NCBI GenBank assembly: GCA_003233055.1
Contig: QIKP01000017.1
Span: 8,299 to 72,298, forward strand
Length of the DNA: 64,000 bases
Reading direction: 5' to 3'
From: Planctomycetaceae bacterium
GTDB taxonomy: Bacteria > Planctomycetota > Planctomycetia > Pirellulales > Lacipirellulaceae
Numbering within the stretch: position 1 is the first letter of the stretch; every line of letters begins with the position of its first letter. This document shows, one piece after another, positions 2 through 54,992 of the stretch. A program made the position numbers and the translations under genes. Under the pieces are notes generated by a model, which saw nothing but the letters and a program-made list of their open reading frames with translations, did no database searches and was not told the DNA's origin.

Positions 2-844
2 GTTCAAACACAATCCTATGGAAAATCGCAGGTTCGAGTTTCTCGAATAGCCTGCGAGGGTGACCAGCACCGAATTGCCGAACTGACCGTGTGGATCGAG
101 TTGCAGGGCGACTTCGACGCTGCGTATACCGATGCCGACAATTCACTCATCGTGCCAACCGATACGGTCAAAAACACCGTTTACGTACTCGCGAGCCAGC
201 ATGGCATCGATTCGATCGAGGCCTTCTGTTCGATCGTGGCAGAGCATTTCCTGCAGAGCTACGACCATGTCGACCTGGCGGTGGTCCATGGGGAAGAAAC
301 GCTCCGCGATCGCCTTCAGATCGGAGGCCAACCCCATCCCCACGCCTTCGAAGCACGGAGCGAACAAAATACTTGCGATGTCGTAGCGATGCGCGACGGG
401 ATAGCGCTCTCCGCCGGATTCGCGGGACTCGAGGTGCTCAAGACCACGGCGTCTAGTTTTGCCGGCTACCATCAGTGTGAGAACACAACGCTCCAGCCCG
501 TTGGAGATCGCATCTTTGCCACCAGCATCGAGGCAAGCTGGCCCTGCGGCGACGTCGAAGCCGACTGGACCTCGGCCCGCCGCACCATTCGGAATGCGCT
601 GGTTGAAGTTTTTGCGACGACTCTCAGTCCTTCGGTTCAGGCAACGCTCTACCAAATGGGGCGCAAGGGACTCGAAGCCTGCTCGCTCATCGATGAAATC
701 CACATCAGCCTCCCGAATCAGCATCATTTGTTGGCGGACCTTTCGCCATTTGGGTTGGAAAACCCAAACGAAGTCTTCATTCCCGTGAGCGAGCCGTTTG
801 GCAACATTCGTGCGACGATCGCCCGCAAGGAGAGCGCCGAGTGA
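2..844 (+). CDS. pucL: Cofactor-independent urate oxidase (uricase), 5' end truncated by window edge
   Basis: Frame is open from position 2 (VQTQSYGKSQVRVSRI..., the uricase N-terminal YGK motif); also PTDTVKNTVY, VLKTT, DRIFAT, SPSVQATLY, LPNQH and PFGNI motifs. Confidence 0.93.
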   Translation, partial: VQTQSYGKSQVRVSRIACEGDQHRIAELTVWIELQGDFDAAYTDADNSLIVPTDTVKNTVYVLASQHGIDSIEAFCSIVAEHFLQSYDHVDLAVVHGEETLRDRLQIGGQPHPHAFEARSEQNTCDVVAMRDGIALSAGFAGLEVLKTTASSFAGYHQCENTTLQPVGDRIFATSIEASWPCGDVEADWTSARRTIRNALVEVFATTLSPSVQATLYQMGRKGLEACSLIDEIHISLPNQHHLLADLSPFGLENPNEVFIPVSEPFGNIRATIARKESAE

Positions 845-2199
845 GCCCCGTTGGTCCACGATTCGCCCTGGTCAGTTCCCGCGTTGTCACTCCCGAGGGA
901 GTCGGCCCTCAAGCCGTCCTCGTCGCGGGTGATCAGATTGAAGCGGTCGTTCCTCCGCACGAGCTGCCGACCGATATCGATGCAATCGACTACGGCGACT
1001 TGGTCATCATGCCTGGCCTGGTCGATTCCCATGTCCACATCAACGAACCAGGCCGAACCGAATGGGAAGGATTTGAAACGGCAACCCGCGCCGCTGCGAG
1101 TGGCGGGGTGACGACACTCGTCGACATGCCGCTTAACTCCAGTCCGGTCACCACGACCCCTCGATCGCTCCAGAAGAAACAAGAAGCCTCGGCAGGAAAG
1201 ACCTGGGTCGATGTCGGTTTTTGGGGCGGACTCGTTCCGGGTAATCTTGGTGAACTGGAGTCGCTCGTTGGAGCAGGCGTTTGCGGAGTGAAGGCGTTTC
1301 TGTGCGATTCGGGACTGGATGAATTCCCAAGCGTCGACGAGGCGGTCCTCCGCCAAGCGATGCCAATCCTCGCCCGACTCGGCACGACGCTACTGGTTCA
1401 CGCCGAGCTACCCGATTCGCCATCCCCCGGCCTGGAAGTGAAAACGAGCTATCGCGACTACCTAGCGTCGCGGCCCGAGAAGTGGGAAACCGATGCGATC
1501 GAGTTGGTTCTTCGACTCTGCGAAGAATTCCGATGCCGGGTGCATGTTGTCCACCTAGCGAGTGGCGACGGGCTGGCTCTCATCGAATCGGCCAAGCGGC
1601 GTGGTTTACCGGTCACGGTAGAGACCTGCCCTCACTACCTGTATTTCGCAGCCGAGCGGATTCCCGACGCCGACCCCCGATTCAAATGCGCTCCCCCCCT
1701 TCGTGAGCAGCTGCATGGCGACCTGCTCTGGCGCGGCCTTCTGGAGGGAGCGATCGACCTCGTGGCGACCGACCACTCTCCCTGCCAGCCCGAGCGGAAG
1801 CACCTCGACGACGGAAATCTCGAAGCGGCCTGGGGAGGAATCGCAAGCCTGGGCCTCGCGCTCCCGATCGTATGGACGCGCGGCCGGGAAAGAAACCTTG
1901 ACTTCAGCCAGCTCTCAAAATTATTGTCGAGCGCTCCGGCGCGACTTGCGGGCCTTGCCGACCGTAAGGGAACCATTGCGCCAGGGAAAGATGCCGACCT
2001 CGTCGTATGGGATCCCGATGCGTCTTGGACCGTCAACGCCTCCCAGCTCCTGTTCCGCCACAAAATAACACCCTACGATGGCGAGTCACTGGTCGGAAAG
2101 GTGGTGAGGACTTATCTTCGTGGCCATTTGATTTATGATGTCGGCCAATTGATCGGCGAACCAACCGGGAATCTCCTACGTCCCCACAAAATCCTCTAG
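841..2199 (+). CDS. allB: Allantoinase
   Basis: PGLVDSHVHINEPGRTEWEGF, GGVTTLVDMPLN, ETCPHYL, KCAPPLR, ATDHSP amidohydrolase motifs; overlaps uricase stop by 4 nt. Confidence 0.93.
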   Translation: MSPVGPRFALVSSRVVTPEGVGPQAVLVAGDQIEAVVPPHELPTDIDAIDYGDLVIMPGLVDSHVHINEPGRTEWEGFETATRAAASGGVTTLVDMPLNSSPVTTTPRSLQKKQEASAGKTWVDVGFWGGLVPGNLGELESLVGAGVCGVKAFLCDSGLDEFPSVDEAVLRQAMPILARLGTTLLVHAELPDSPSPGLEVKTSYRDYLASRPEKWETDAIELVLRLCEEFRCRVHVVHLASGDGLALIESAKRRGLPVTVETCPHYLYFAAERIPDADPRFKCAPPLREQLHGDLLWRGLLEGAIDLVATDHSPCQPERKHLDDGNLEAAWGGIASLGLALPIVWTRGRERNLDFSQLSKLLSSAPARLAGLADRKGTIAPGKDADLVVWDPDASWTVNASQLLFRHKITPYDGESLVGKVVRTYLRGHLIYDVGQLIGEPTGNLLRPHKIL

Positions 2200-2210
2200 G
2201 CCAGTGCCAA

Positions 2211-2717
2211 GTGTCCTTAGCAAAATATCTCAACTCGCTGGAGGTCGGTCGCTGCGAGGCAGAATTAAGGCAATGCTGCGCGGCGGAGGCATGGGTGCGA
2301 GGAATGCTCGACAGACGGCCTTTTGACAGCAGCCTCTCGGTTCGTAGCGCAGCCGAGACGATCTGGAAATCGCTCTCGGAAGCCGACTGGCGGGAAGCGT
2401 TCGAGGCCCATCCGCGCATTGGCGATCTCACCTCGCTTCAAGACAAATTTGGCGCTACGCGAGACTGGGCCGAGGGAGAACAATCGGGCGCGGCGGCAGC
2501 GGACATCGAGACACTCCAGCGTCTTGCCGATCTGAACCAAAAATACCTGGATCGATTCGGATATCTCTTCATCGTCTGCGCGACCGGCAAGACGGCGGCC
2601 CAGATGCTCGCTCTCCTCAAGGCCCGGCTGCCCAACCGACCAGAGGTCGAGATCAAAATCGCAGCGGCCGAGCAACTCAAAATCACCCTCCTTCGATTAG
2701 CAAAGCTGGTACCATGA
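2211..2717 (+). CDS. uraD: OHCU decarboxylase
   Basis: AHPRIG, EQSGA, LNQKYLDRFGYLFIVCATGK, EQLKIT motifs; operon context. Confidence 0.92.
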   Translation: MSLAKYLNSLEVGRCEAELRQCCAAEAWVRGMLDRRPFDSSLSVRSAAETIWKSLSEADWREAFEAHPRIGDLTSLQDKFGATRDWAEGEQSGAAAADIETLQRLADLNQKYLDRFGYLFIVCATGKTAAQMLALLKARLPNRPEVEIKIAAAEQLKITLLRLAKLVP

Positions 2718-3052
2718 GCCCGATAACCACCCACGTTCTCGATACGTCGCTCGGGCAGCCCGCCGAGGGGATGGTCATCCGGCTGGAGCAAGAGACCTCC
2801 GAAGAATGGAACGCCTTGGCCAGCGGAGTGACCGATTCGGACGGGCGAATTGTCGATTGGCTCCCGACCGGTTCGCTGGAGATCGGCACCTATCGGCTCG
2901 TCTTCGCGACAGGGGATTACTTCTCGCGGCTTGGCATCGAAGCCTTCTATCCCCGAGTGACCGTGGAGTGGACCCTCTCGGACTCCGATTCCCACTACCA
3001 TGTGCCGCTACTCTTAAGTCCTTTCGGATATTCGACTTATCGTGGGAGTTGA
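2714..3052 (+). CDS. uraH: 5-hydroxyisourate hydrolase (transthyretin-like)
   Basis: ITTHVLDT, TDSDGR, HYHVPLLLSPFGYSTYRGS C-terminal signature. Confidence 0.96.
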   Translation: MSPITTHVLDTSLGQPAEGMVIRLEQETSEEWNALASGVTDSDGRIVDWLPTGSLEIGTYRLVFATGDYFSRLGIEAFYPRVTVEWTLSDSDSHYHVPLLLSPFGYSTYRGS

Positions 3053-3258: not shown

Positions 3259-4659
3259 ATGACCACCGCCGTCGCACCAGAACCTTCTTCCGCGCTGCTT
3301 GAATCTCTTCTGGGGGAGGGGACGTTCTCTCCTCAGGAGCCACAGACGCTCGAAGAAGTCGGGGTAAGCTCCGTTCTGATCGAAGGGTTGGCGATCAAGT
3401 ACCTGCTACAGGTCGGGACCTCCACCGGTCGGGACCTCGCGGACAAGCTCTGCCTTCCTTTTCCGTTGGTGGAAGAGATCCTCGTAGGGTTGCGCACCCG
3501 GCAAGTCGTCGTCCATATGGGGCAGGGGCAGTTCAATGACTACAGCTATCGGCTCACCGACGATGGGGCGGAGAGAGCTCGGGCGGCCATGCAGGCCTGT
3601 GCCTACATTGGCCCGGTGCCCGTACCACTCGAGGAGTACATCGTGTCGGTGGAGGCCCAGACAATTCGTGCCGAAGCGGTACTGCGAAGGGACTTGGCCA
3701 AGGCCTTTGAAGGCATCTCCGTTGAGCCAAAGATGCTCGACATCCTGGGCCCTGCCATCAACAGTGGGGCGGGCCTCTTCCTTTACGGCGCTCCGGGAAA
3801 TGGAAAAACAACCCTCGCCAAGCGGATTACCCGCTGCTTTGGCAACTCCATATGGATTCCTCGCACGCTGATCGAAGATGGGCAATTCGTCAAATTATTT
3901 GACGCCGCCTTTCACGAACCGATCGAGGCGACCCAATCGAGCATCATCAAAAGCGAGACCGTCGACAATCGCTGGATCAAGATTGGCCGGCCGACGGTCG
4001 TCGTGGGTGGCGAGCTGACGATGGACAGCCTCGAAATTCGCCACGACCCGGTTGCGAACGTCAGCGAAGCCTCGCTGCAACTCAAGAGCAACGGGGGCTG
4101 CCTACTCATCGATGACTTCGGTCGTCAACGCGTCGAGCCGACGGAGCTCCTCAATCGATGGATCGTTCCTCTGGAAAATCGTTTCGATTTCCTCTCCCTG
4201 GCGACCGGCCGGAAGATTCAGGTCCCGTTCGACCAACTGATTATTTTCTCCACCAACCTTGAACCGGACGACCTCGCCGACGAGGCATTTCTTCGGCGTA
4301 TTCCTTACAAAGTCGAAGTGGGCGATCCAGGACTTACCGAATTTCGCCAGCTATTCAAGCATTGCTGCGACTCCCTCGGGTGCGGCTATCGCCCCGAAGC
4401 GGTGGACTATCTGGTGGAGAAACACTACCGACCCCTCGGCCGGCCGCTACGGCGATGCCAAGCCCGCGACCTGCTGGCCCAGATTAAAAACTACTGCATC
4501 TACGAAGGGGTTTCCCTTGAATTGCGCCCTGACTACCTCGACCGAGCGGTGAGCGGCTACTTCACCGCTACCGGCAGCGAGAAGGCGAGCAGCGTCACCG
4601 ACCCGTCGGGCCAACCGAGCGACACGGCGGCAACTCCGGAGGCATCGAACCAAACGTGA
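3259..4659 (+). CDS. AAA+ ATPase with N-terminal winged-helix-like region
   Basis: Walker [10 protein letters not shown], Walker B LLIDDFG, FSTN sensor region, AFLRRI; paralogue at 52108-53616. Confidence 0.85.
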   Translation: MTTAVAPEPSSALLESLLGEGTFSPQEPQTLEEVGVSSVLIEGLAIKYLLQVGTSTGRDLADKLCLPFPLVEEILVGLRTRQVVVHMGQGQFNDYSYRLTDDGAERARAAMQACAYIGPVPVPLEEYIVSVEAQTIRAEAVLRRDLAKAFEGISVEPKMLDILGPAINSGAGLFLYGAPGNGKTTLAKRITRCFGNSIWIPRTLIEDGQFVKLFDAAFHEPIEATQSSIIKSETVDNRWIKIGRPTVVVGGELTMDSLEIRHDPVANVSEASLQLKSNGGCLLIDDFGRQRVEPTELLNRWIVPLENRFDFLSLATGRKIQVPFDQLIIFSTNLEPDDLADEAFLRRIPYKVEVGDPGLTEFRQLFKHCCDSLGCGYRPEAVDYLVEKHYRPLGRPLRRCQARDLLAQIKNYCIYEGVSLELRPDYLDRAVSGYFTATGSEKASSVTDPSGQPSDTAATPEASNQT

Positions 4660-7600
4660 GTCCTGACTCCGCTCAACCCGATGTTGCCCTTCCCGGCTAC
4701 CAATTTTTCGACCGCCTCGGTTCAGGTGGGTACGGAGAGGTCTGGCGTGCCGAAGCACCTGGCGGTCTAGCCAAGGCGGTGAAGCTCGTCTTTGGACGTT
4801 ACGATCAGCGGCGTGCTTCGGTCGAGATGCGAGCCATGGAGCGAATGAAATCGCTCCGCCATCCCTTCTTGCTTTCGCTCGAACGGATCGAGATCGTCGA
4901 GAATCGACTTTTTATCGTCACGGAACTTGCGGATGGAAGCCTCCGCGATCGGTTCCGTGAATGCCAAGCGACTGGGTTGCCTGGGATTCCTCGCGACGAG
5001 CTTCTCCACTACCTCAGCAATGCTGCCGATGCGCTCGACTTCCTTTGCGACCAAAGCGAGTTGCAGCATCTGGACGTGAAGCCCGAGAATCTGCTCCTGG
5101 TCGCGGGGCACGTTAAGGTCGCCGACTTCGGATTGGTCAAAGATATTCACTCGACTCAGGCATCCCTGGTGGGCGGGATGACCCCGAGCTACGCAGCCCC
5201 CGAGTTGTTCCAAGGTTGCCCGACCCGACACAGCGATCAGTATAGTTTGGCCATTCTTTTCCAAGAAATGCTCACCGGTACGCTTCCCTTCCAGGGGGCG
5301 ACGGCAGCCGAACTGACGCTCCAACATATCAACGGATCCCCCCAACTCGAATCGCTGTCGGAAGGCGATCGGTTCACCCTTTCCCAGGCGCTCTCCAAGG
5401 AAGCGGACCACCGGTTTCCCAGTTGTCGCGACTTGGTCAAGGCGCTCCGAAGTCGATCGTTGGCCGACTCCTCGGCTGCCGAAGACTCCACCGAGACTCC
5501 GGCAGCCGACGGACCCGCTCACTCGGTGTCTCGGTTTAAAGGAGCGGTCCAGCCGCCGGCAAGCCACTCCGTAACGCAAGTGTTTGACGAGGACCAGGCG
5601 AGTTGGTCGGAGCAATCCAAGCCGGTCTTGTTCGATCTGCCTGAGATGGAGCCTTGTCAGCAAGTATCGCCGCCCGACTTTCATGCGGAGGAGGTGCCTC
5701 TAACCCCTTCGGTAGTGATCGGACTGGGAGGAACCGCCGCCTCGGTCATGAGGGCGCTCCGTGAAAAAGTCGCCAATAGCTTGGGAAACGAGGCCGAACA
5801 ATCGGTCATAGAGATGCTATTGATCGACACCGATGCTTCGACCATTTCGGCCGCTGTTCGAGAGTCCGACGAGGGGCCTCCCCTCGCACCGCAAGAAACC
5901 CTTTGTGCCGCCCTGAGGCGACCTCAAGATTATCGAAACGATTCTTCTCGGCTGCTTCGATGGATTTCCCGGCGTTGGCTCTACAATATCCCAAAATCGC
6001 TACTCACCGGTGGCATCCGACCGCTCGGTCGATTGGCGATGGTCGACCATGCACGTCAAGTCTGCCAGCGGATTCGGCTTGTGTTGCAACAAGCGGTGGA
6101 CCCCGAACGCCTCGCAGAGATCGAAACCTCAACCGGAATCCGATTTCAACGCGACGCCGTGAGAGTTTATTTAGTCGGATCGATCTCCGGTGGCACTGGC
6201 AGTGGCATGATGCTCGACGTGGCGTATCTCGTTCGTGCGAGTCTTGACCGGATGGAATTGGACGAAAAACGCCTCCTTGGTATCGCCGCCCACTCAACGA
6301 GCCGCGATGCGGAGAAAGGGGAGCTCGGCCGGGTCAATGCCTTTGCATGGCTGGCGGAACTCGACTACCTCTCTCAACCGGAAGTAGCCTATCCTGGTGA
6401 CGACAGCGCGGGCCTTCCTCGGCACGACGCTTCGGTTCGCCCCTTCGACGACGCCTACCTCGTCAACATGGGCGAGCGACTCGCACCAGCAATGTTCTCC
6501 AAACAGACGAGCTCGATTGCCGACTACCTGTTTGTCGACATGCTCACACCAGGACAGCAAGTCCTCGACACCTTCCGAAAGATAAAGCCGGACGACGACT
6601 CGGGATCTGGAACTCCCCTTCGGACCTTTGCCTTGCGCCGGACCACGCGGCTCTCTCCGGAGGCCTCTCACGATTGGGCTTCCTTGATTCGGCAACGGCT
6701 ACTGGAAAGCTGGTGTGGGCAATCCTTCAAGTCTCCCTCGGCAGCTGCGCCGACCTCCGACAAAACTCCCGGATCGACTTCAACAGGAAAGATCGTTCGC
6801 GGGGCGGCTCAGTTTGTCGGCCAGCATCCGATCGACGTAGCCGGCCTCGCAGCGCTTGGTCGAACCGGCGTCGAGAAAAAGTTGGGAGGCAACGCCCTCC
6901 GTCGGCTTCGGCAAGCGATCCAGGAGGCGGGTTACTCGCCCGACACACTCACTCGCGAGAAGGGGGTCGAGCTTTTCAACGGCCTTATTCCGTGCGAATC
7001 TCTAAGCAAGCCCCAGCATTGGCGAATCGCCGGCCAGAGAGTGTCGACCGTCGCAGCGGAGGTAAGCGAACGTCTTGCCAACGATTTGACCCGTTGGATC
7101 CTGGAGCGATGCAACCTGCCCCAGGAGCGCCTCCCAAGCGCCGAACGGGCCGTCGAATGGTTTCGAGACCACCTGCAATCCTTATCGGTACCCCTTGAAA
7201 AGATGCGACGTTCGCTAGCGTCGCAAAGCTCAGCGATTCTAGAAACCTCGCCTCCCGAGTCGAAGGACGAAATCGGCAGGCAGATCGTACGGCTGTGGAA
7301 ACTCCGAATCGATCAGGCGGCGATCGGCGTCGCTTGCCAAGTGGTTATCGAATTAGCTCGAACACTGGACTCGGTCAGTGAACGTCTTGGCTCGGCGCGC
7401 AAAGGATTCCAAGCGATACTCGCCGATTCTCCCTCCGCAAAAGAAGTCTCTGAAAAAATAGAGGTTCCCGTAGGGCCATGGATCGCGCGTTGGATCACCG
7501 AACTCGACCAACAACTGACTGGAAATCTTGTGGACGAGGAGGGTCGCTTTGTCCACTTGAGTCACGAACCAGAAGGAAATCAACACTTCGCCGACAGAAT

Positions 7601-8084
7601 TCAGCGCGAAGCGGAGGAGCTGGTGAGCCAATCGCCCACCCTTCACAAGATGGCCGCCCAGAATGCAGGGATGGCGTCCTTAGGAGAAGAGTCCGAGACG
7701 CTCTCGAATGCCTTGCACCCATACTTCGATTCACAAGGAGGGGAATACTGCCACCTGCTCCTGACCCCCGAGTGCAACGATTCTTTGGAAAACAACCCGA
7801 TGGAGTCCCTCGGGGCCGTTCGCATCGCGACTTCCTTGCCCGATGCCTACTGCGTGGCCGAGGCCTGGGGGCTTTCGGTCCTTCATGTTGCGGCCGAACT
7901 TGTCGGCGGCCGGCACGACTACGCCCAGTTGGCGTCGCGCGTCCACTCTCGGCAAGATATTGAGTGGCCCTGTTTGATTGACAATTTGGCACCCGAGGAG
8001 GTACGCGTCGCCGAAAGCGAGGTCCTCAGCACCCAAGTGTTGGCACTCCCGTCCGAATCGATGGTCCGTGTTCCTAACGCATAA
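4656..8084 (+). CDS. Ser/Thr protein kinase fused to a tubulin/FtsZ-like (Tubulin_2-type) domain and helical C-terminus
   Basis: Kinase: GSGGYGEVW, AVK, HLDVKPEN, DFG, YAAPE, DQYSLA. Tubulin-like: VIGLGGTA, LIDTD, GSISGGTGSG, NAFAWLAELD, PFDDAYLV. Confidence 0.88.
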   Translation: MSPDSAQPDVALPGYQFFDRLGSGGYGEVWRAEAPGGLAKAVKLVFGRYDQRRASVEMRAMERMKSLRHPFLLSLERIEIVENRLFIVTELADGSLRDRFRECQATGLPGIPRDELLHYLSNAADALDFLCDQSELQHLDVKPENLLLVAGHVKVADFGLVKDIHSTQASLVGGMTPSYAAPELFQGCPTRHSDQYSLAILFQEMLTGTLPFQGATAAELTLQHINGSPQLESLSEGDRFTLSQALSKEADHRFPSCRDLVKALRSRSLADSSAAEDSTETPAADGPAHSVSRFKGAVQPPASHSVTQVFDEDQASWSEQSKPVLFDLPEMEPCQQVSPPDFHAEEVPLTPSVVIGLGGTAASVMRALREKVANSLGNEAEQSVIEMLLIDTDASTISAAVRESDEGPPLAPQETLCAALRRPQDYRNDSSRLLRWISRRWLYNIPKSLLTGGIRPLGRLAMVDHARQVCQRIRLVLQQAVDPERLAEIETSTGIRFQRDAVRVYLVGSISGGTGSGMMLDVAYLVRASLDRMELDEKRLLGIAAHSTSRDAEKGELGRVNAFAWLAELDYLSQPEVAYPGDDSAGLPRHDASVRPFDDAYLVNMGERLAPAMFSKQTSSIADYLFVDMLTPGQQVLDTFRKIKPDDDSGSGTPLRTFALRRTTRLSPEASHDWASLIRQRLLESWCGQSFKSPSAAAPTSDKTPGSTSTGKIVRGAAQFVGQHPIDVAGLAALGRTGVEKKLGGNALRRLRQAIQEAGYSPDTLTREKGVELFNGLIPCESLSKPQHWRIAGQRVSTVAAEVSERLANDLTRWILERCNLPQERLPSAERAVEWFRDHLQSLSVPLEKMRRSLASQSSAILETSPPESKDEIGRQIVRLWKLRIDQAAIGVACQVVIELARTLDSVSERLGSARKGFQAILADSPSAKEVSEKIEVPVGPWIARWITELDQQLTGNLVDEEGRFVHLSHEPEGNQHFADRIQREAEELVSQSPTLHKMAAQNAGMASLGEESETLSNALHPYFDSQGGEYCHLLLTPECNDSLENNPMESLGAVRIATSLPDAYCVAEAWGLSVLHVAAELVGGRHDYAQLASRVHSRQDIEWPCLIDNLAPEEVRVAESEVLSTQVLALPSESMVRVPNA

Positions 8085-8121: not shown

Positions 8122-9249
8122 ATGAATTCCTCGCTCTTCTCTGCCCCTTCGATCTGGACCCTCAGTGGACAGATTTCGGACGATGACTCGATGCGTCGAT
8201 TCACGCTCGACCTTTCTCCCTTCACGGTCGGACGGCGTCCCGATCGCTCGTTGACCCTACCGAGCGCGACCGTTTCGGGCAAGCATGCGGAATTTCTTAT
8301 TGAAGGCGAACAGCTTTACGTCCACGATCTTGGTAGCACCAATGGCACGTTCGTCAACGGCGACCGTGTGCGAGATCGCTGCGTGGTGAACCACGGCGAC
8401 CTCGTGCAATTCGCCCAGATCGTTTTCCGCACTAGCCGCGATACGGCGGCCACGCACCACTCCACGGTCGAAAACAACTCGGCCGATCGCGCATTAGCCC
8501 TCATCCAGTTCGACAAACTGATGACCGACCGGGCTGTCTTGCCTCACTTCCAACCGATCATCACGATCGACGACCGGGCGATCATCGGCTACGAAGTTCT
8601 CGGGCGCAGCCGGCTCTTTGGGCTCGCAGATCCCCATACGATGTTCATGGCGGCGGCGGTGCTCAATCTGGAATCGGAGCTAAGCCGTATTTTTCGTGTG
8701 GAAGGCATTCGCGAGGGGAAACCGTTGCCTTCGCAGCAGTTGTTCTTCGTCAATACCCACCCCAACGAAATCGCCGACCTCGAGTTGTTGATCTTCTCCC
8801 TTCGTGAACTACGAGAAATGGTTCCCGACAGGCCCATTATCCTGGAAATCCACGAAGCGACCGCTACCAAGACCACCGAGATGCGCGAGCTTCGCGCCGC
8901 GCTTACGGACCTCGATATGGGCCTCGCGTACGACGACTTTGGTGCGGGACAGGCAAGGCTCGTGGAGCTGGTCGATGTGCCGCCCGACTATCTGAAGTTC
9001 GACATGGCGCTGGTCCAAGGCATCGCCAGTGCCAGTCTTGGTCGTCAGCAAATGGTGAAGCAGCTTGTGCAGATGACGCGCGATCTGGGAATCCAACCGC
9101 TGGCCGAGGGAATCGAAACGGAAGAAGACCATGCCCTCTGCTCGGAAATCGGATTCTCGACCGCTCAAGGATTCCTTTACGGAAAGCCGGCCACGGCCAA
9201 AGCAACCCTCGCATCAGTTCAACAGGTCGCGGAATCGGCGCTGAGCTAG
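8122..9249 (+). CDS. FHA domain + EAL c-di-GMP phosphodiesterase
   Basis: FHA: VGRR...SGKHA...DLGSTNGTFVNG; EAL: FQPI, GYEVLGR, FVN, EIHE, DDFGAG, YLKFD, AEGIET, QGFLY. Start taken at ATG 8122. Confidence 0.9.
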   Translation: MNSSLFSAPSIWTLSGQISDDDSMRRFTLDLSPFTVGRRPDRSLTLPSATVSGKHAEFLIEGEQLYVHDLGSTNGTFVNGDRVRDRCVVNHGDLVQFAQIVFRTSRDTAATHHSTVENNSADRALALIQFDKLMTDRAVLPHFQPIITIDDRAIIGYEVLGRSRLFGLADPHTMFMAAAVLNLESELSRIFRVEGIREGKPLPSQQLFFVNTHPNEIADLELLIFSLRELREMVPDRPIILEIHEATATKTTEMRELRAALTDLDMGLAYDDFGAGQARLVELVDVPPDYLKFDMALVQGIASASLGRQQMVKQLVQMTRDLGIQPLAEGIETEEDHALCSEIGFSTAQGFLYGKPATAKATLASVQQVAESALS

Positions 9250-52107: not shown

Positions 52108-53616
52108 CTACATGACCGCAAAGTAGTTTTCGACCGCGAAGTCAAGCGTTTCGTTCGACATCACGGCAGGTTGTTTCGTGTACCGACAGTAGTTGCGGAT
52201 TTGCAATAAGAGATCACGCGGTTGGCAGCAGCGCATGGGGCGGTTCACCGCACGGTAGTGGTTTTCCATCAGGTAGTCGAGCGACTTCTCGTCGTAGGCG
52301 ACGCCGATAATGGGTGCCATGATACCAAACAACTTGCGGAAGGCTTCCTCGCTAGGATCGGTCACTTCGATCTTATACGGAATCCGGCGAAGGAAGGCGT
52401 CGTCCACGAGGTCCTTCGGCTCCAAGTTCGTGGAGAAGATAATCAGTTGATCGAAGGGGACCTGGATTTTCTTGCCGCTCGAGAGGTTGAGGAAGTCATA
52501 CCGCTTTTCTAGGGGGATAATCCATCGGTTGAGAAGCTCGTCGGTGGTCATCCTCTGACGACCAAAGTCGTCGATCACGAGCGTGCCGCAGTTGCTCTTG
52601 AGTTGTAGCGGGGCTTCACTGACGTTGGTGTTCGTGTTGAGGGTAACTTCGAGGGACTCCATGGTCAGTTCGCCGCCAACGACGATCGTTGGCCTGCGAA
52701 TCCGGACCCAGCGATTGTCCGCTTTTCGATCATCGAGAAGGCCCTCGAATTCTTCCACCGGTGCGGCTTCGTGCAAGCTCGGGTCGAAAACTCGCATGAT
52801 CTCACCATCCAGGCCGATGGCTCGTGGAATCCAGATGAACTCGCCGAACGCCTTGGTAACCCGCTCGGCAATGCTGGTCTTGCCATTGCCCGGTGCGCCA
52901 AACAGAAAGAGCCCGCGTCCCGAATTAATCGCCGGTCCCAGCCGCAAGAGCATTCGTTGGTCGATGAGCAAGTCCTCAAAAGCCCGAGCGAGATCTTCTT
53001 CAGAAGGCTGCTGGTTCGCGAGTGTTTGCTCGGAGACGCTGTGGAGGTACTGCTGGAGCGTGACGGGAGCGGCACCAAAATAGGTGCAATATTCCGAAAG
53101 TTTTTTGGCTCGCTCTCGCCCTTTGTTCGTCGGTTGGTAGATGTAGTCGTTGATCATCGCCGCGTTGCGAAACGCGATAAGCTGGTTCTGCTTCATCATT
53201 TGCAGTAACGGATCGATGAGTCGGAAAGGCAGCTTGATGGACTCCGACAGATCCCGCCCGCTCGCCTCGCTTCGCGCGCTGAGCGACTTGAGCAGCAAGT
53301 CCTCCACTTCACTTTCCGATAGCCCGGCCGCCGGGATGTCTTCTGGCTCTGCGGGATACCAATCGCCCTGAGCATCTTGGACATCGGCGTTGGAGGCCGC
53401 TTCCGGCGATGGGGGGGCGACACGAACCGCAGGGGAGGGAGCCGCTACGGTTTCTTCTGTAAGGGCGGAAGAGGGGGGGCTGGTCTCCAGCGCAGGCGGC
53501 AGCCCTTCCGCATTGGTGGTGAGTTGGTGGATACGATTGAGCAAAGAGTCGAGACGCTCCTGCCCTGTTTCGGGGGATGCTGACGTCGGGTCCCCCTCGA
53601 TGGTGCCAGTACTCAT
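52108..53616 (-). CDS. AAA+ ATPase with winged-helix-like region, paralogue of 3259-4659
   Basis: [53 protein letters not shown]; Pro/Ala-rich N-terminal extension. Confidence 0.85.
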
Positions 53617-54086
53617 GCGGAGACTCTCAGGAAGGAGTGGTTGTTATCGATCCAAGCAACAAGGGAATGGCAAATCCCTGCTCGGAACATTATTTAGGGA
53701 CCTCATGCGCCGCTGGGCCCTCCTTCTACAGTGAGGGGCCCTTTCCCTGCTCGCCGTTCCATACGACCTCACAGAGCGCCGGGTAGGGAGTTCGACTCGC
53801 AAAACGTAGGTCGAAATTAGCCACATGCAAACGAAGGGAGGGAGGGAGGCGATTGCAACGGTCGTAGGGGATGCCCCGAGTATTCCAAATACGATCTTGC
53901 CAATCGCTCCATCCGAGCGGTTGTCGAGTCAGGACTGGCCTTCGCAGGCTGTTTGGCAGCGTATATTTTAGAAGCCATGCGGAGAAAGGTGCTGCATGGC
54001 ATCGCGACCATCGCTCACGATCCCAACGACCTATCCCACGGCAGCGCGCCTTGACGTTTGCCCTCCTTTCACTTTGGCCAACCTCC

Positions 54087-54992
54087 GTGACCACAGCCGC
54101 TCCCTCATTGCCCAAAGGCCTTAGTAACGGAGCTTTACAGCTTCCGAACGAGGCGCTCGAAGCTCTCTTTCAGCGTCTGAGTGAACTCTCTTCCTTGCCG
54201 TCGATTGCACTTCGTATCATCGAAGCGGCCGTCGACGAAGGAACGGATGCCGAGGACCTTCGCCGCCTGATTGAAAAAGACCCGGCCCTTTCGGCTCGAA
54301 TCATACGGATCGTGAACTCCTCGTTCTACGCAGTGCGGCAGGAGGTGGCCGACCTGAAGAGCGCGATCGCTCTTTTGGGAACGAAGCAGATTCGCAATAT
54401 CGCGATCACGGTATTCGTCTCGCGGCAGTTCCGCCCCGCCTCGAGTAGCGAGACGCTCGATCGGAATCGCCTTTGGAATCACGCGATGGCTGTCGGTGCG
54501 ATCGCACGCCTACTCGCCACGACAACGCGTAAGTGCGATCCGGAAGAAGCCTATTTAGCCGGCCTGCTTCATGACATTGGTCTTTTGATTATCGACCAGC
54601 ATCTAGGTCGCCATGTTCCGAAGATCCAGTCGATCGTCGGCGAGGGCCAGACGCTGCATGATGCGGCCCAACAAGTGCTGACGTTCGATCCTTCGCAATT
54701 GGGCGCTTACGTGGCATGGCGGTCGCATTTCCCGGCTCGGCTCGTTAGTGCGATTGAATTTCAGCGTAAACCAGACGAATACGTTGGCGAGGACCGCCAG
54801 CTTACCGACTTGGTGGCGGTCGCCGACCACGTTGCCACGCAGAGCGGATCGGGGGTCTTGAAAGGTTCCGACGTACCCTCGCCTTCGGAGGAGGTCTTTG
54901 CTCGACTCGACCTGGATAGCAATGCGATGAAGCGGATTTGGGCGCAAGTCGACGAAACCCTGGCAGCGACGCAATCGCTGTCGGCGTGTTGA
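54087..54992 (+). CDS. HDOD domain signalling protein
   Basis: LPSIALRI, DPALSARIIRIVNSSFY, AI.LLG, LWNH, AGLLHDIG; start uncertain. Confidence 0.88.
   Translation: MTTAAPSLPKGLSNGALQLPNEALEALFQRLSELSSLPSIALRIIEAAVDEGTDAEDLRRLIEKDPALSARIIRIVNSSFYAVRQEVADLKSAIALLGTKQIRNIAITVFVSRQFRPASSSETLDRNRLWNHAMAVGAIARLLATTTRKCDPEEAYLAGLLHDIGLLIIDQHLGRHVPKIQSIVGEGQTLHDAAQQVLTFDPSQLGAYVAWRSHFPARLVSAIEFQRKPDEYVGEDRQLTDLVAVADHVATQSGSGVLKGSDVPSPSEEVFARLDLDSNAMKRIWAQVDETLAATQSLSAC

Follow-up and report, generated by a model that had tools for sequence, protein, structure and literature searches.

A planctomycete Ser/Thr kinase-FtsZl1 fusion protein and its recurrent ATPase and FHA-EAL gene neighbours

A gene joining an N-terminal Hanks-type Ser/Thr kinase to a tubulin/FtsZ-like GTPase domain was identified in a 64,000-nucleotide (nt) stretch of DNA, the window, from Planctomycetaceae bacterium (GCA_003233055.1, contig QIKP01000017.1); all positions follow the numbering of the window. 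No transmembrane segment was predicted in the product, which is a predicted soluble, cytoplasmic protein and almost certainly belongs to the FtsZl1 family (Pfam Tubulin_2), in the planctomycete subgroup with an N-terminal Hanks-type kinase. The gene and its domains are as follows.

4656-8084, + strand: kinase-FtsZl1 fusion gene, 1142 amino acids (aa), GTG start, from the open reading frame (ORF) list
4698-5441, + strand: Hanks-type Ser/Thr kinase domain (aa 15-262), Pfam PF00069, 107 bits against a cut-off of 31.7, E 1.4e-30
5472-5705, + strand: linker (aa 273-350); aa 273-322 disordered, with a predicted local distance difference test (pLDDT) below 50, aa 323-350 modelled with higher confidence
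5712-6554, + strand: Tubulin_2/FtsZl1 GTPase-like domain (Pfam match aa 353-633, folded to about aa 690), PF13809 E 3.6e-40, pLDDT mostly above 90
6804-7715, + strand: helical stalk (aa 717-1020) in the AlphaFold2 (AF2) models, two of its helices (aa 825-863 and 870-924) being very long
7737-7970, + strand: C-terminal alpha/beta domain (aa 1028-1105), with strands in aa 1030-1071, GG at 1028-1029 and R1099-x-D1101-x-x-W1104

The PF13809 profile was matched with 138.7 bits against a cut-off of 27 in the protein search, and with 141.5 bits in the whole-genome scan. The first-pass annotation, made from the sequence alone, had placed a divergent Tubulin_2/FtsZ-like member at 5707-6560; this span corresponds to aa 351-635 and coincides with the Pfam match, and the T1-, LIDTD- and T4-like motifs named in it lie where they were placed, in the frame of ORF 4656-8084. 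Since they coincide with a profile match of this strength, the motif observation is far beyond chance. Among the profiles proposed for an HMM (hidden Markov model) search, Tubulin_2 was matched above threshold and PF00091 was not; neither PF00091 nor any further Pfam domain appeared in the fusion protein at E up to 1. The PF13809 match ended at model position 299 of 356, so that towards its end the domain has diverged further than it has in most members of the family.

The fold agreed with the profile. For the full-length protein, AF2 with 30 homologues gave a model with a mean pLDDT of 80.2, and the model of aa 340-1142 had a pLDDT of 84.7 and a predicted template modelling score (pTM) of 0.71. 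An alpha/beta domain extended from aa 352 to about aa 690, with strands (S) and helices (H) in the order S1-H1-S2-H2-S3-...-S4-H4-S5-H5-S6, which is that of the tubulin/FtsZ GTPase domain. In a Foldseek search of the aa 340-1142 model against the PDB the top 50 matches were all CetZ, FtsZ, TubZ or gamma/beta-tubulin with probability 1.00, the best being CetZ2 (4b45, E 8.5e-7); the top matches covered about 340 columns at 10-18% identity, with a template modelling (TM) score by target of 0.41-0.50. Against predicted viral structures, phage FtsZ/tubulins were the sole matches. The reading of the first-pass annotation, which was to fall if the predicted structure lacked a tubulin fold, withstood this check, with the tubulin/FtsZ superfamily alone in the top 50. 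Phmmer with aa 340-1142 gave zero matches among PDB sequences even at E 10, so it takes the Pfam profile or the fold to see the relationship to FtsZ. When the family profile was aligned locally to the single E. coli FtsZ sequence by hhalign, the match was restricted to H3-S4-T4-H4 (56 columns, E 0.007, FtsZ residues 68-123), which is too weak for a residue-by-residue mapping of T5-T7. The tubulin-like part had no match in PHROGs.

The motifs of the tubulin-like domain are listed below; their conservation was taken from an alignment of 30-35 homologues, non-kinase FtsZl1 proteins included.

5712-5744, + strand: VVIGLGGTAAS (aa 353-363), in-frame motif
5721-5744, + strand: T1-like loop GLGGTAAS (aa 356-363), G358 invariant and G356 nearly invariant
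5817-5834, + strand: LLIDTD (aa 388-393), the T2 loop with D391 and D393, conserved in the family
5916-5999, + strand: family-specific insertion between S3 and the T3 loop, motifs RRPQDYR and SRRWLYNIPKS (aa 421-448)
6009-6053, + strand: equivalent of the T3 loop and helix H3, GGIRPLGRLAMVDHA (compare GANPEVGRNAADE in E. coli FtsZ), from family conservation and hhalign
6177-6209, + strand: GSISGGTGSGM (aa 508-518), in-frame motif
6186-6206, + strand: T4 tubulin signature SGGTGSG (aa 511-517), with G512, G513 and G517 nearly invariant, aligned by hhalign to GGGTGTG of FtsZ
6540-6584, + strand: expected position of the T7 loop, as a helix, Thr-Pro (631-632) and a short helix to R641, from AF2 secondary structure and conservation

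Residues of T1, T2 (D391, D393), T3 (R455, G458, R459) and T4 (G512, G513, G517) were conserved among proteins only 17-46% identical, as would be expected of a nucleotide pocket under selection. Within T3 and H3, R455 and A461 were invariant, and G453 and P456-L460 nearly so. The insertion probably sits, relative to FtsZ, just before the T3-like G-x-R-P-L-G-R-L-A; its residues Y426, R427, S438-W441, Y443, N444 and P446 were nearly invariant, and the Tyr and Pro were kept in non-kinase FtsZl1 as well. The earlier suggestion that T1 is unusual and GTP binding perhaps altered did not hold, as G356-x-G358-G359 is the same G-x-G-G start as GVGG in E. coli FtsZ, with G356 and G358 invariant or nearly invariant also in the members without a kinase. 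T1 is thus typical of the family, and nothing in it points to a change in GTP binding. A degenerate domain that has lost nucleotide binding and gives the kinase just a structural or dimerisation platform might be proposed from the low identity to FtsZ/tubulin (10-18%), the HMM similarity to E. coli FtsZ limited to H3-T4-H4 and the missing PF00091 match. It is improbable, because the nucleotide-loop motifs, namely glycine-rich T1 and T4, the D-T-D of T2 and the P-x-G-R of T3, are invariant or nearly invariant at this level of divergence.

After S6 the models contained a 20-residue helix, a conserved Thr-Pro break (aa 631-632), a short helix, one strand (aa 655-663), one helix (aa 668-686) and then disorder. 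R641, at the end of the short helix, was nearly invariant, and these helices may be equivalent to H7, T7 and H8. Neither the N-x-D-x-x-D/E motif of T7 nor a conserved acidic residue was found after S6 in sequence, alignment or models; the structure prediction that had been proposed for locating a T7 loop thus delivered the fold, and at the expected place no canonical T7 motif. This agrees with Makarova and Koonin 2010 (PMC2875224), where FtsZl1 could be aligned up to H5 only and the S6-T7 region was incompatible. The first-pass statement that the protein is not a division FtsZ stands: PF00091 was matched neither in the protein nor elsewhere in the genome, a T7 motif is missing, and the fusion locus has no dcw-cluster context.

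The remainder of the protein had been described as about 500 aa of helical sequence, which is right for most of its length; the tail is mostly helical, and it ends in the small alpha/beta domain with strands in aa 1030-1071. The GG and R-x-D-x-x-W residues of this domain were invariant or nearly so in non-kinase FtsZl1 too, for example in a Thermus protein. No significant structural neighbour of the helical tail and C-terminal domain occurred among the matches listed (PDB and viral models).

The kinase and the low-complexity linker precede the tubulin-like domain, as first described (Pkinase aa 15-262, disordered aa 273-322). The catalytic residues of the kinase were invariant across 30 homologues, namely the G-loop GSGGYGEVW, K43, E57, D140 (HLD), N145, DFG157-159 and APE (P182-E183), so that the kinase is active-looking, every catalytic residue being conserved; it is a non-RD kinase, since the Arg of HRD is replaced by Leu (HLD140). 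The public gene call gives a protein of 1082 aa from Met61 (window 4656-4838 being concerned), and this start would drop the G-loop and the catalytic Lys43. Homologues align from about residue 10, and for this reason the GTG at 4656, which has GGAGG about 14 nt 5' of it, is the better start; with it the kinase is complete and can be aligned to every homologue. The first-pass annotation had placed the tubulin-like domain under direct kinase control. Because the two domains share one chain and the catalytic residues of the kinase are invariant, regulation in cis between kinase and GTPase domain is plausible, and either may control the other.

The linker contains one candidate phosphorylation site.

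5568-5597, + strand: Thr307 motif SVTQVFDEDQ, candidate phospho-site for docking of an FHA domain

Most of the 30 closest homologues have a Thr aligned with Thr307. A docking Thr motif universal to the linkers was considered and rejected: the motif holds in the closest clade, but overall it occurs in only 17 of the 60 linkers that could be delimited, and with that count Thr307 is a lead and no family feature. The final 30 residues of the linker (aa 321-350, window 5616-5705) had a pLDDT of 72-85 and, just before strand S1, a semi-conserved motif of the type [DE]-L-P-P-x-[DE], and may be packed onto the GTPase domain instead of forming free linker.

For the gene neighbourhood, every ORF lying up to 6 kb from the fusion gene was clustered at 81 loci. 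Just two real neighbour families recurred, an AAA-like ATPase (57 loci) and an FHA-EAL protein (60 loci), and both adjoin the fusion gene in the window. Of the loci without these neighbours, many are cut by contig ends.

3259-4659, + strand: divergent AAA-like P-loop ATPase, 466 aa, Walker A GAPGNGKT, Walker B LLIDD
8122-9249, + strand: FHA-EAL protein, 375 aa, Pfam FHA 3.4e-18, EAL 2.5e-33

The TGA stop of the ATPase gene overlaps the GTG start of the fusion gene (GTGA), and the FHA-EAL gene starts 37 nt 3' of the fusion-gene stop. The ATPase had weak, Walker-A-level matches only in Pfam, PDB, PADLOC and PHROG, with a weak resemblance to IetA, and its N-terminal stretch of about 140 aa had no family assignment. 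Its orthologues, 50-71% identical, lie usually immediately upstream on the same strand in the 57 loci. The family, for which there is no Pfam model, was present in 20 of 20 genomes of the class against 1 of 281 other genomes of the phylum, with 1-4 paralogues; a module-specific ATPase was rejected on this class-wide occurrence. Two paralogues in the own genome were 47-49% identical to the module ATPase. One is divergent from an HDOD-domain gene (window 52108-53616, - strand, and 53871-54992, + strand), and the other is at the edge of another contig (1-1431), beside uvrC and a phosphoglucomutase-like gene.

The FHA-EAL gene was found divergent upstream, co-directional upstream or, as in the window, downstream of the fusion gene. 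Type A modules, the window's among them, have kept the R/S/H/N residues of FHA in 43 of 43 loci and the catalytic residues of EAL in at least 41 of 43; on these residues the window protein is a predicted phosphothreonine reader and a catalytically intact cyclic di-GMP (c-di-GMP) phosphodiesterase. In type B modules (16 loci), the fusion gene is directly preceded by a REC-GGDEF-CBS gene (Pfam assignment) and an FHA-EAL gene; the FHA residues were kept in all 16, whereas the EAL catalytic residues have decayed. This suggests that the type B EAL is a c-di-GMP-binding pseudo-enzyme and not a phosphodiesterase, and the REC-GGDEF-CBS protein is a second link to c-di-GMP. As the FHA residues are invariant even where EAL has decayed, phosphothreonine reading is the constant function of the partner. 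Strict co-occurrence of FHA-EAL and the fusion was also tried and rejected, because some genomes that lack the fusion have unlinked FHA-EAL homologues.

The protein search yielded about 30 kinase-Tubulin_2 proteins of full length, and 27 of the 28 homologues longer than 1000 aa carried both Pkinase and Tubulin_2. A scan with one genome per species gave more than 500 loci; the 80 that were retrieved all came from Planctomycetota records. In a maximum-likelihood (ML) tree of 70 fusion proteins the clades followed taxonomy, and the window protein fell in a fully supported clade of seven, including Bythopirellula/Lacipirellulaceae records, in which FHA-EAL directly follows the fusion gene in all six members with downstream sequence. 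Gene-order types clustered on the tree, with 14 changes against 34.3 after shuffling and none of 200 shuffles as low. In a record titled Phycisphaera sp. RhM, the fusion protein was near-sister to that of Stieleria mannarensis (Pirellulaceae; branch lengths 0.08 and 0.11) with the same gene order, so the contig or bin label is probably misassigned.

The tubulin-like domain was found in 27 of 61 genomes of the class, its presence going by family: 8/10, 12/12 (mostly three copies) and 5/5 in three families, and 0/12 and 0/13 in two others. An independent HMM scan of a phylum sample agreed with this distribution. In the Gemmataceae-type genomes the fusion gene was expanded to about three copies, two often in tandem. 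No PF00091 match was found across the own genome (2.78 Mb, 90%-complete), which has a single Tubulin_2 gene, or in any of the 61 class genomes, the control detecting PF00091 in 13 of 14 genomes. It could be argued from this that the protein forms GTP-dependent filaments or rings replacing part of FtsZ function at the bud site or division plane, with kinase, ATPase and FHA-EAL as regulators: it is the sole Tubulin_2 gene in a streamlined genome of 2.8 Mb, it has the tubulin/FtsZ fold and long coiled-coil-like helices, and membrane remodelling was proposed for FtsZl1 by Makarova and Koonin 2010 (PMC2875224). But whole families without FtsZ (the two of 12 and 13 genomes) lack the gene, so the fusion cannot be a general FtsZ substitute. 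The T7 loop is missing, the FtsZ C-terminal subdomain is not visible in the model, there is no dcw context, and no transmembrane segment was predicted (other membrane-targeting elements were not looked for); a cytoskeletal or division role is accordingly quite unlikely.

The flanks of the module are housekeeping genes, for purine catabolism and a fucose microcompartment/utilisation locus, without mobile or defence genes, and the GC content of the fusion-gene region equals that of the flanks.

2-3052, + strand: urate catabolism cluster directly upstream, with uricase, allantoinase-like amidohydrolase, OHCU decarboxylase and HIU hydrolase/transthyretin

These surroundings bear on another explanation, in which the FtsZl1 part is an NTP-dependent multimerising sensor or effector of a conflict or defence system, triggered by invaders, and the kinase is its signalling arm. 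Tubulin-domain proteins do occur in predicted conflict systems (Kaur et al. 2020), the distribution is patchy at family level with three paralogues in one family, the kinase resembles mad6 and PD-T4-6 of PADLOC, and the ATPase weakly resembles IetA. However, these matches are generic, to a kinase or a Walker A motif, and far below curated cut-offs (NCBIfam MADS6 76.8 against 460 bits, PglW 30.1 against 990 bits); the PADLOC matches cover the kinase domain alone, and no partners of MADS, PD-T4-6 or BREX systems are nearby. On these scores and the missing partners, the kinase does not belong with the anti-phage kinases MADS Mad6, PD-T4-6 or BREX PglW. No toxin-type effector is linked, the partner being a second-messenger phosphodiesterase, the tree follows taxonomy with stable gene order, and the flanks, uniform GC and lack of PHROG matches likewise speak against defence, which is unlikely here.

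The best overall explanation, to which about an even chance is given, is that the kinase-FtsZl1 protein is a signalling hub linking phosphothreonine signalling to c-di-GMP. The tubulin-like domain would bind GTP and work, in cis with the kinase, either as an assembly element or as a switch. Through self-association the non-RD kinase domains would come close to each other and phosphorylate Thr residues, Thr307 of the linker being one candidate. The FHA domain of the neighbour would then dock on phosphothreonine, and docking would recruit or activate the EAL phosphodiesterase, so that c-di-GMP is lowered locally; the translationally coupled ATPase might remodel or reset the assembly. All of this beyond the presence and conservation of the domains we infer, and the chain as a whole is tentative, somewhat less probable than not.

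Several observations weigh against the signalling-hub explanation. The four-stranded C-terminal subdomain was not visible in the AF2 models after S6, and with no T7 loop and only helices and one strand-helix unit there, FtsZ-style head-to-tail, hydrolysis-coupled polymerisation is doubtful. The strict T-x-x-hydrophobic-[DE] motif of Thr307 was present in just 17 of 60 delimitable linkers. The ATPase family has paralogues outside the module, two more of them in the own genome with unrelated neighbours, FHA-EAL homologues are also found, unlinked, where a genome has no fusion gene, and the Gemmataceae-type fusion copies have neither ATPase nor FHA-EAL adjacent. No experimental study of the fusion, on GTP binding, hydrolysis, polymerisation, kinase activity or FHA docking, was found in the literature.

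A bolder form of the signalling hub, which we consider a long shot, would be a GTP-dependent, T7-independent scaffold at the pole or bud neck, assembled perhaps through the RRWLYNIP insertion or R641. Phosphothreonine on it would recruit FHA-EAL, the ATPase would disassemble it, and mother and bud would differ in c-di-GMP. If true, it would be a planctomycete counterpart of the polarity/c-di-GMP circuit of Caulobacter, built on a tubulin-fold protein in bacteria free of FtsZ. Planctomycetia divide and bud without FtsZ, and the kinase fusion is the sole tubulin-fold protein kept. The present data narrow its role: it is no universal FtsZ replacement, it has no T7 loop, and what stays constant in its partner is the reading of phosphothreonine, in most cases coupled to the turnover of c-di-GMP.

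Several known systems share parts of this arrangement. With FtsZ, CetZ, TubZ and tubulin (PF00091) the protein has in common the Rossmann-like GTPase fold from S1-H1 to S6 and the T1-T4 loop motifs, whereas the insertion of about 30 aa before T3, the 450-aa helical tail and the fused kinase are its own. In ROCO/LRRK2 proteins a GTPase and a Ser/Thr kinase also stand in cis, with nucleotide state and self-association coupled to kinase output; this is an analogy only and no homology is claimed, as a Ras-like Roc domain takes the place of the tubulin-like fold and the domain order is different. Pairs of Hanks kinases and FHA proteins include PknA/PknB with FhaA/FipA/GarA in mycobacteria and PpkA-Fha1 in the type VI secretion system (T6SS) of Pseudomonas, and the phosphorylation of FtsZ by PknA is a precedent for a kinase regulating a tubulin-fold protein. 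As proposed for the window, phosphothreonine made by the kinase is read in these pairs by an FHA protein encoded nearby, and the FHA domain of the window scores against the NCBIfam FhaB/FipA and OdhI models. The difference is that no T6SS or cell-wall genes are nearby, FHA being fused here to EAL and the kinase to a tubulin-like protein.

The closest comparison is with FtsZl1 (PF13809) itself, from which nothing essential differs: the order of kinase, FtsZ-like GTPase, coiled coil and helical C-terminal region is the same, and FtsZ_C and Tubulin_C are missing from both. Kinase-bearing FtsZl1 of planctomycetes was published by Makarova and Koonin 2010 (PMC2875224), a reviewer of which pointed to a diguanylate phosphodiesterase gene beside FtsZl1 of Pirellula staleyi. 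The kinase observation was repeated by Santana-Molina et al. 2023 (PMC9871819), and the tubulin-like domain was reported as the commonest partner of cytoplasmic Ser/Thr kinases in Planctomycetota by Odelgard et al. 2024 (PMC11032199). A regular linkage with ATPase and FHA-EAL was not found described in these three FtsZl1 papers. The tubulin-coiled-coil proteins placed in predicted conflict systems by Kaur et al. 2020 are those of Firmicutes and Actinobacteria, linked to vWA and GAP1-type GTPases. The domain fusion has thus been known since 2010, and the window protein is a further member of it, in a defined and testable signalling module.

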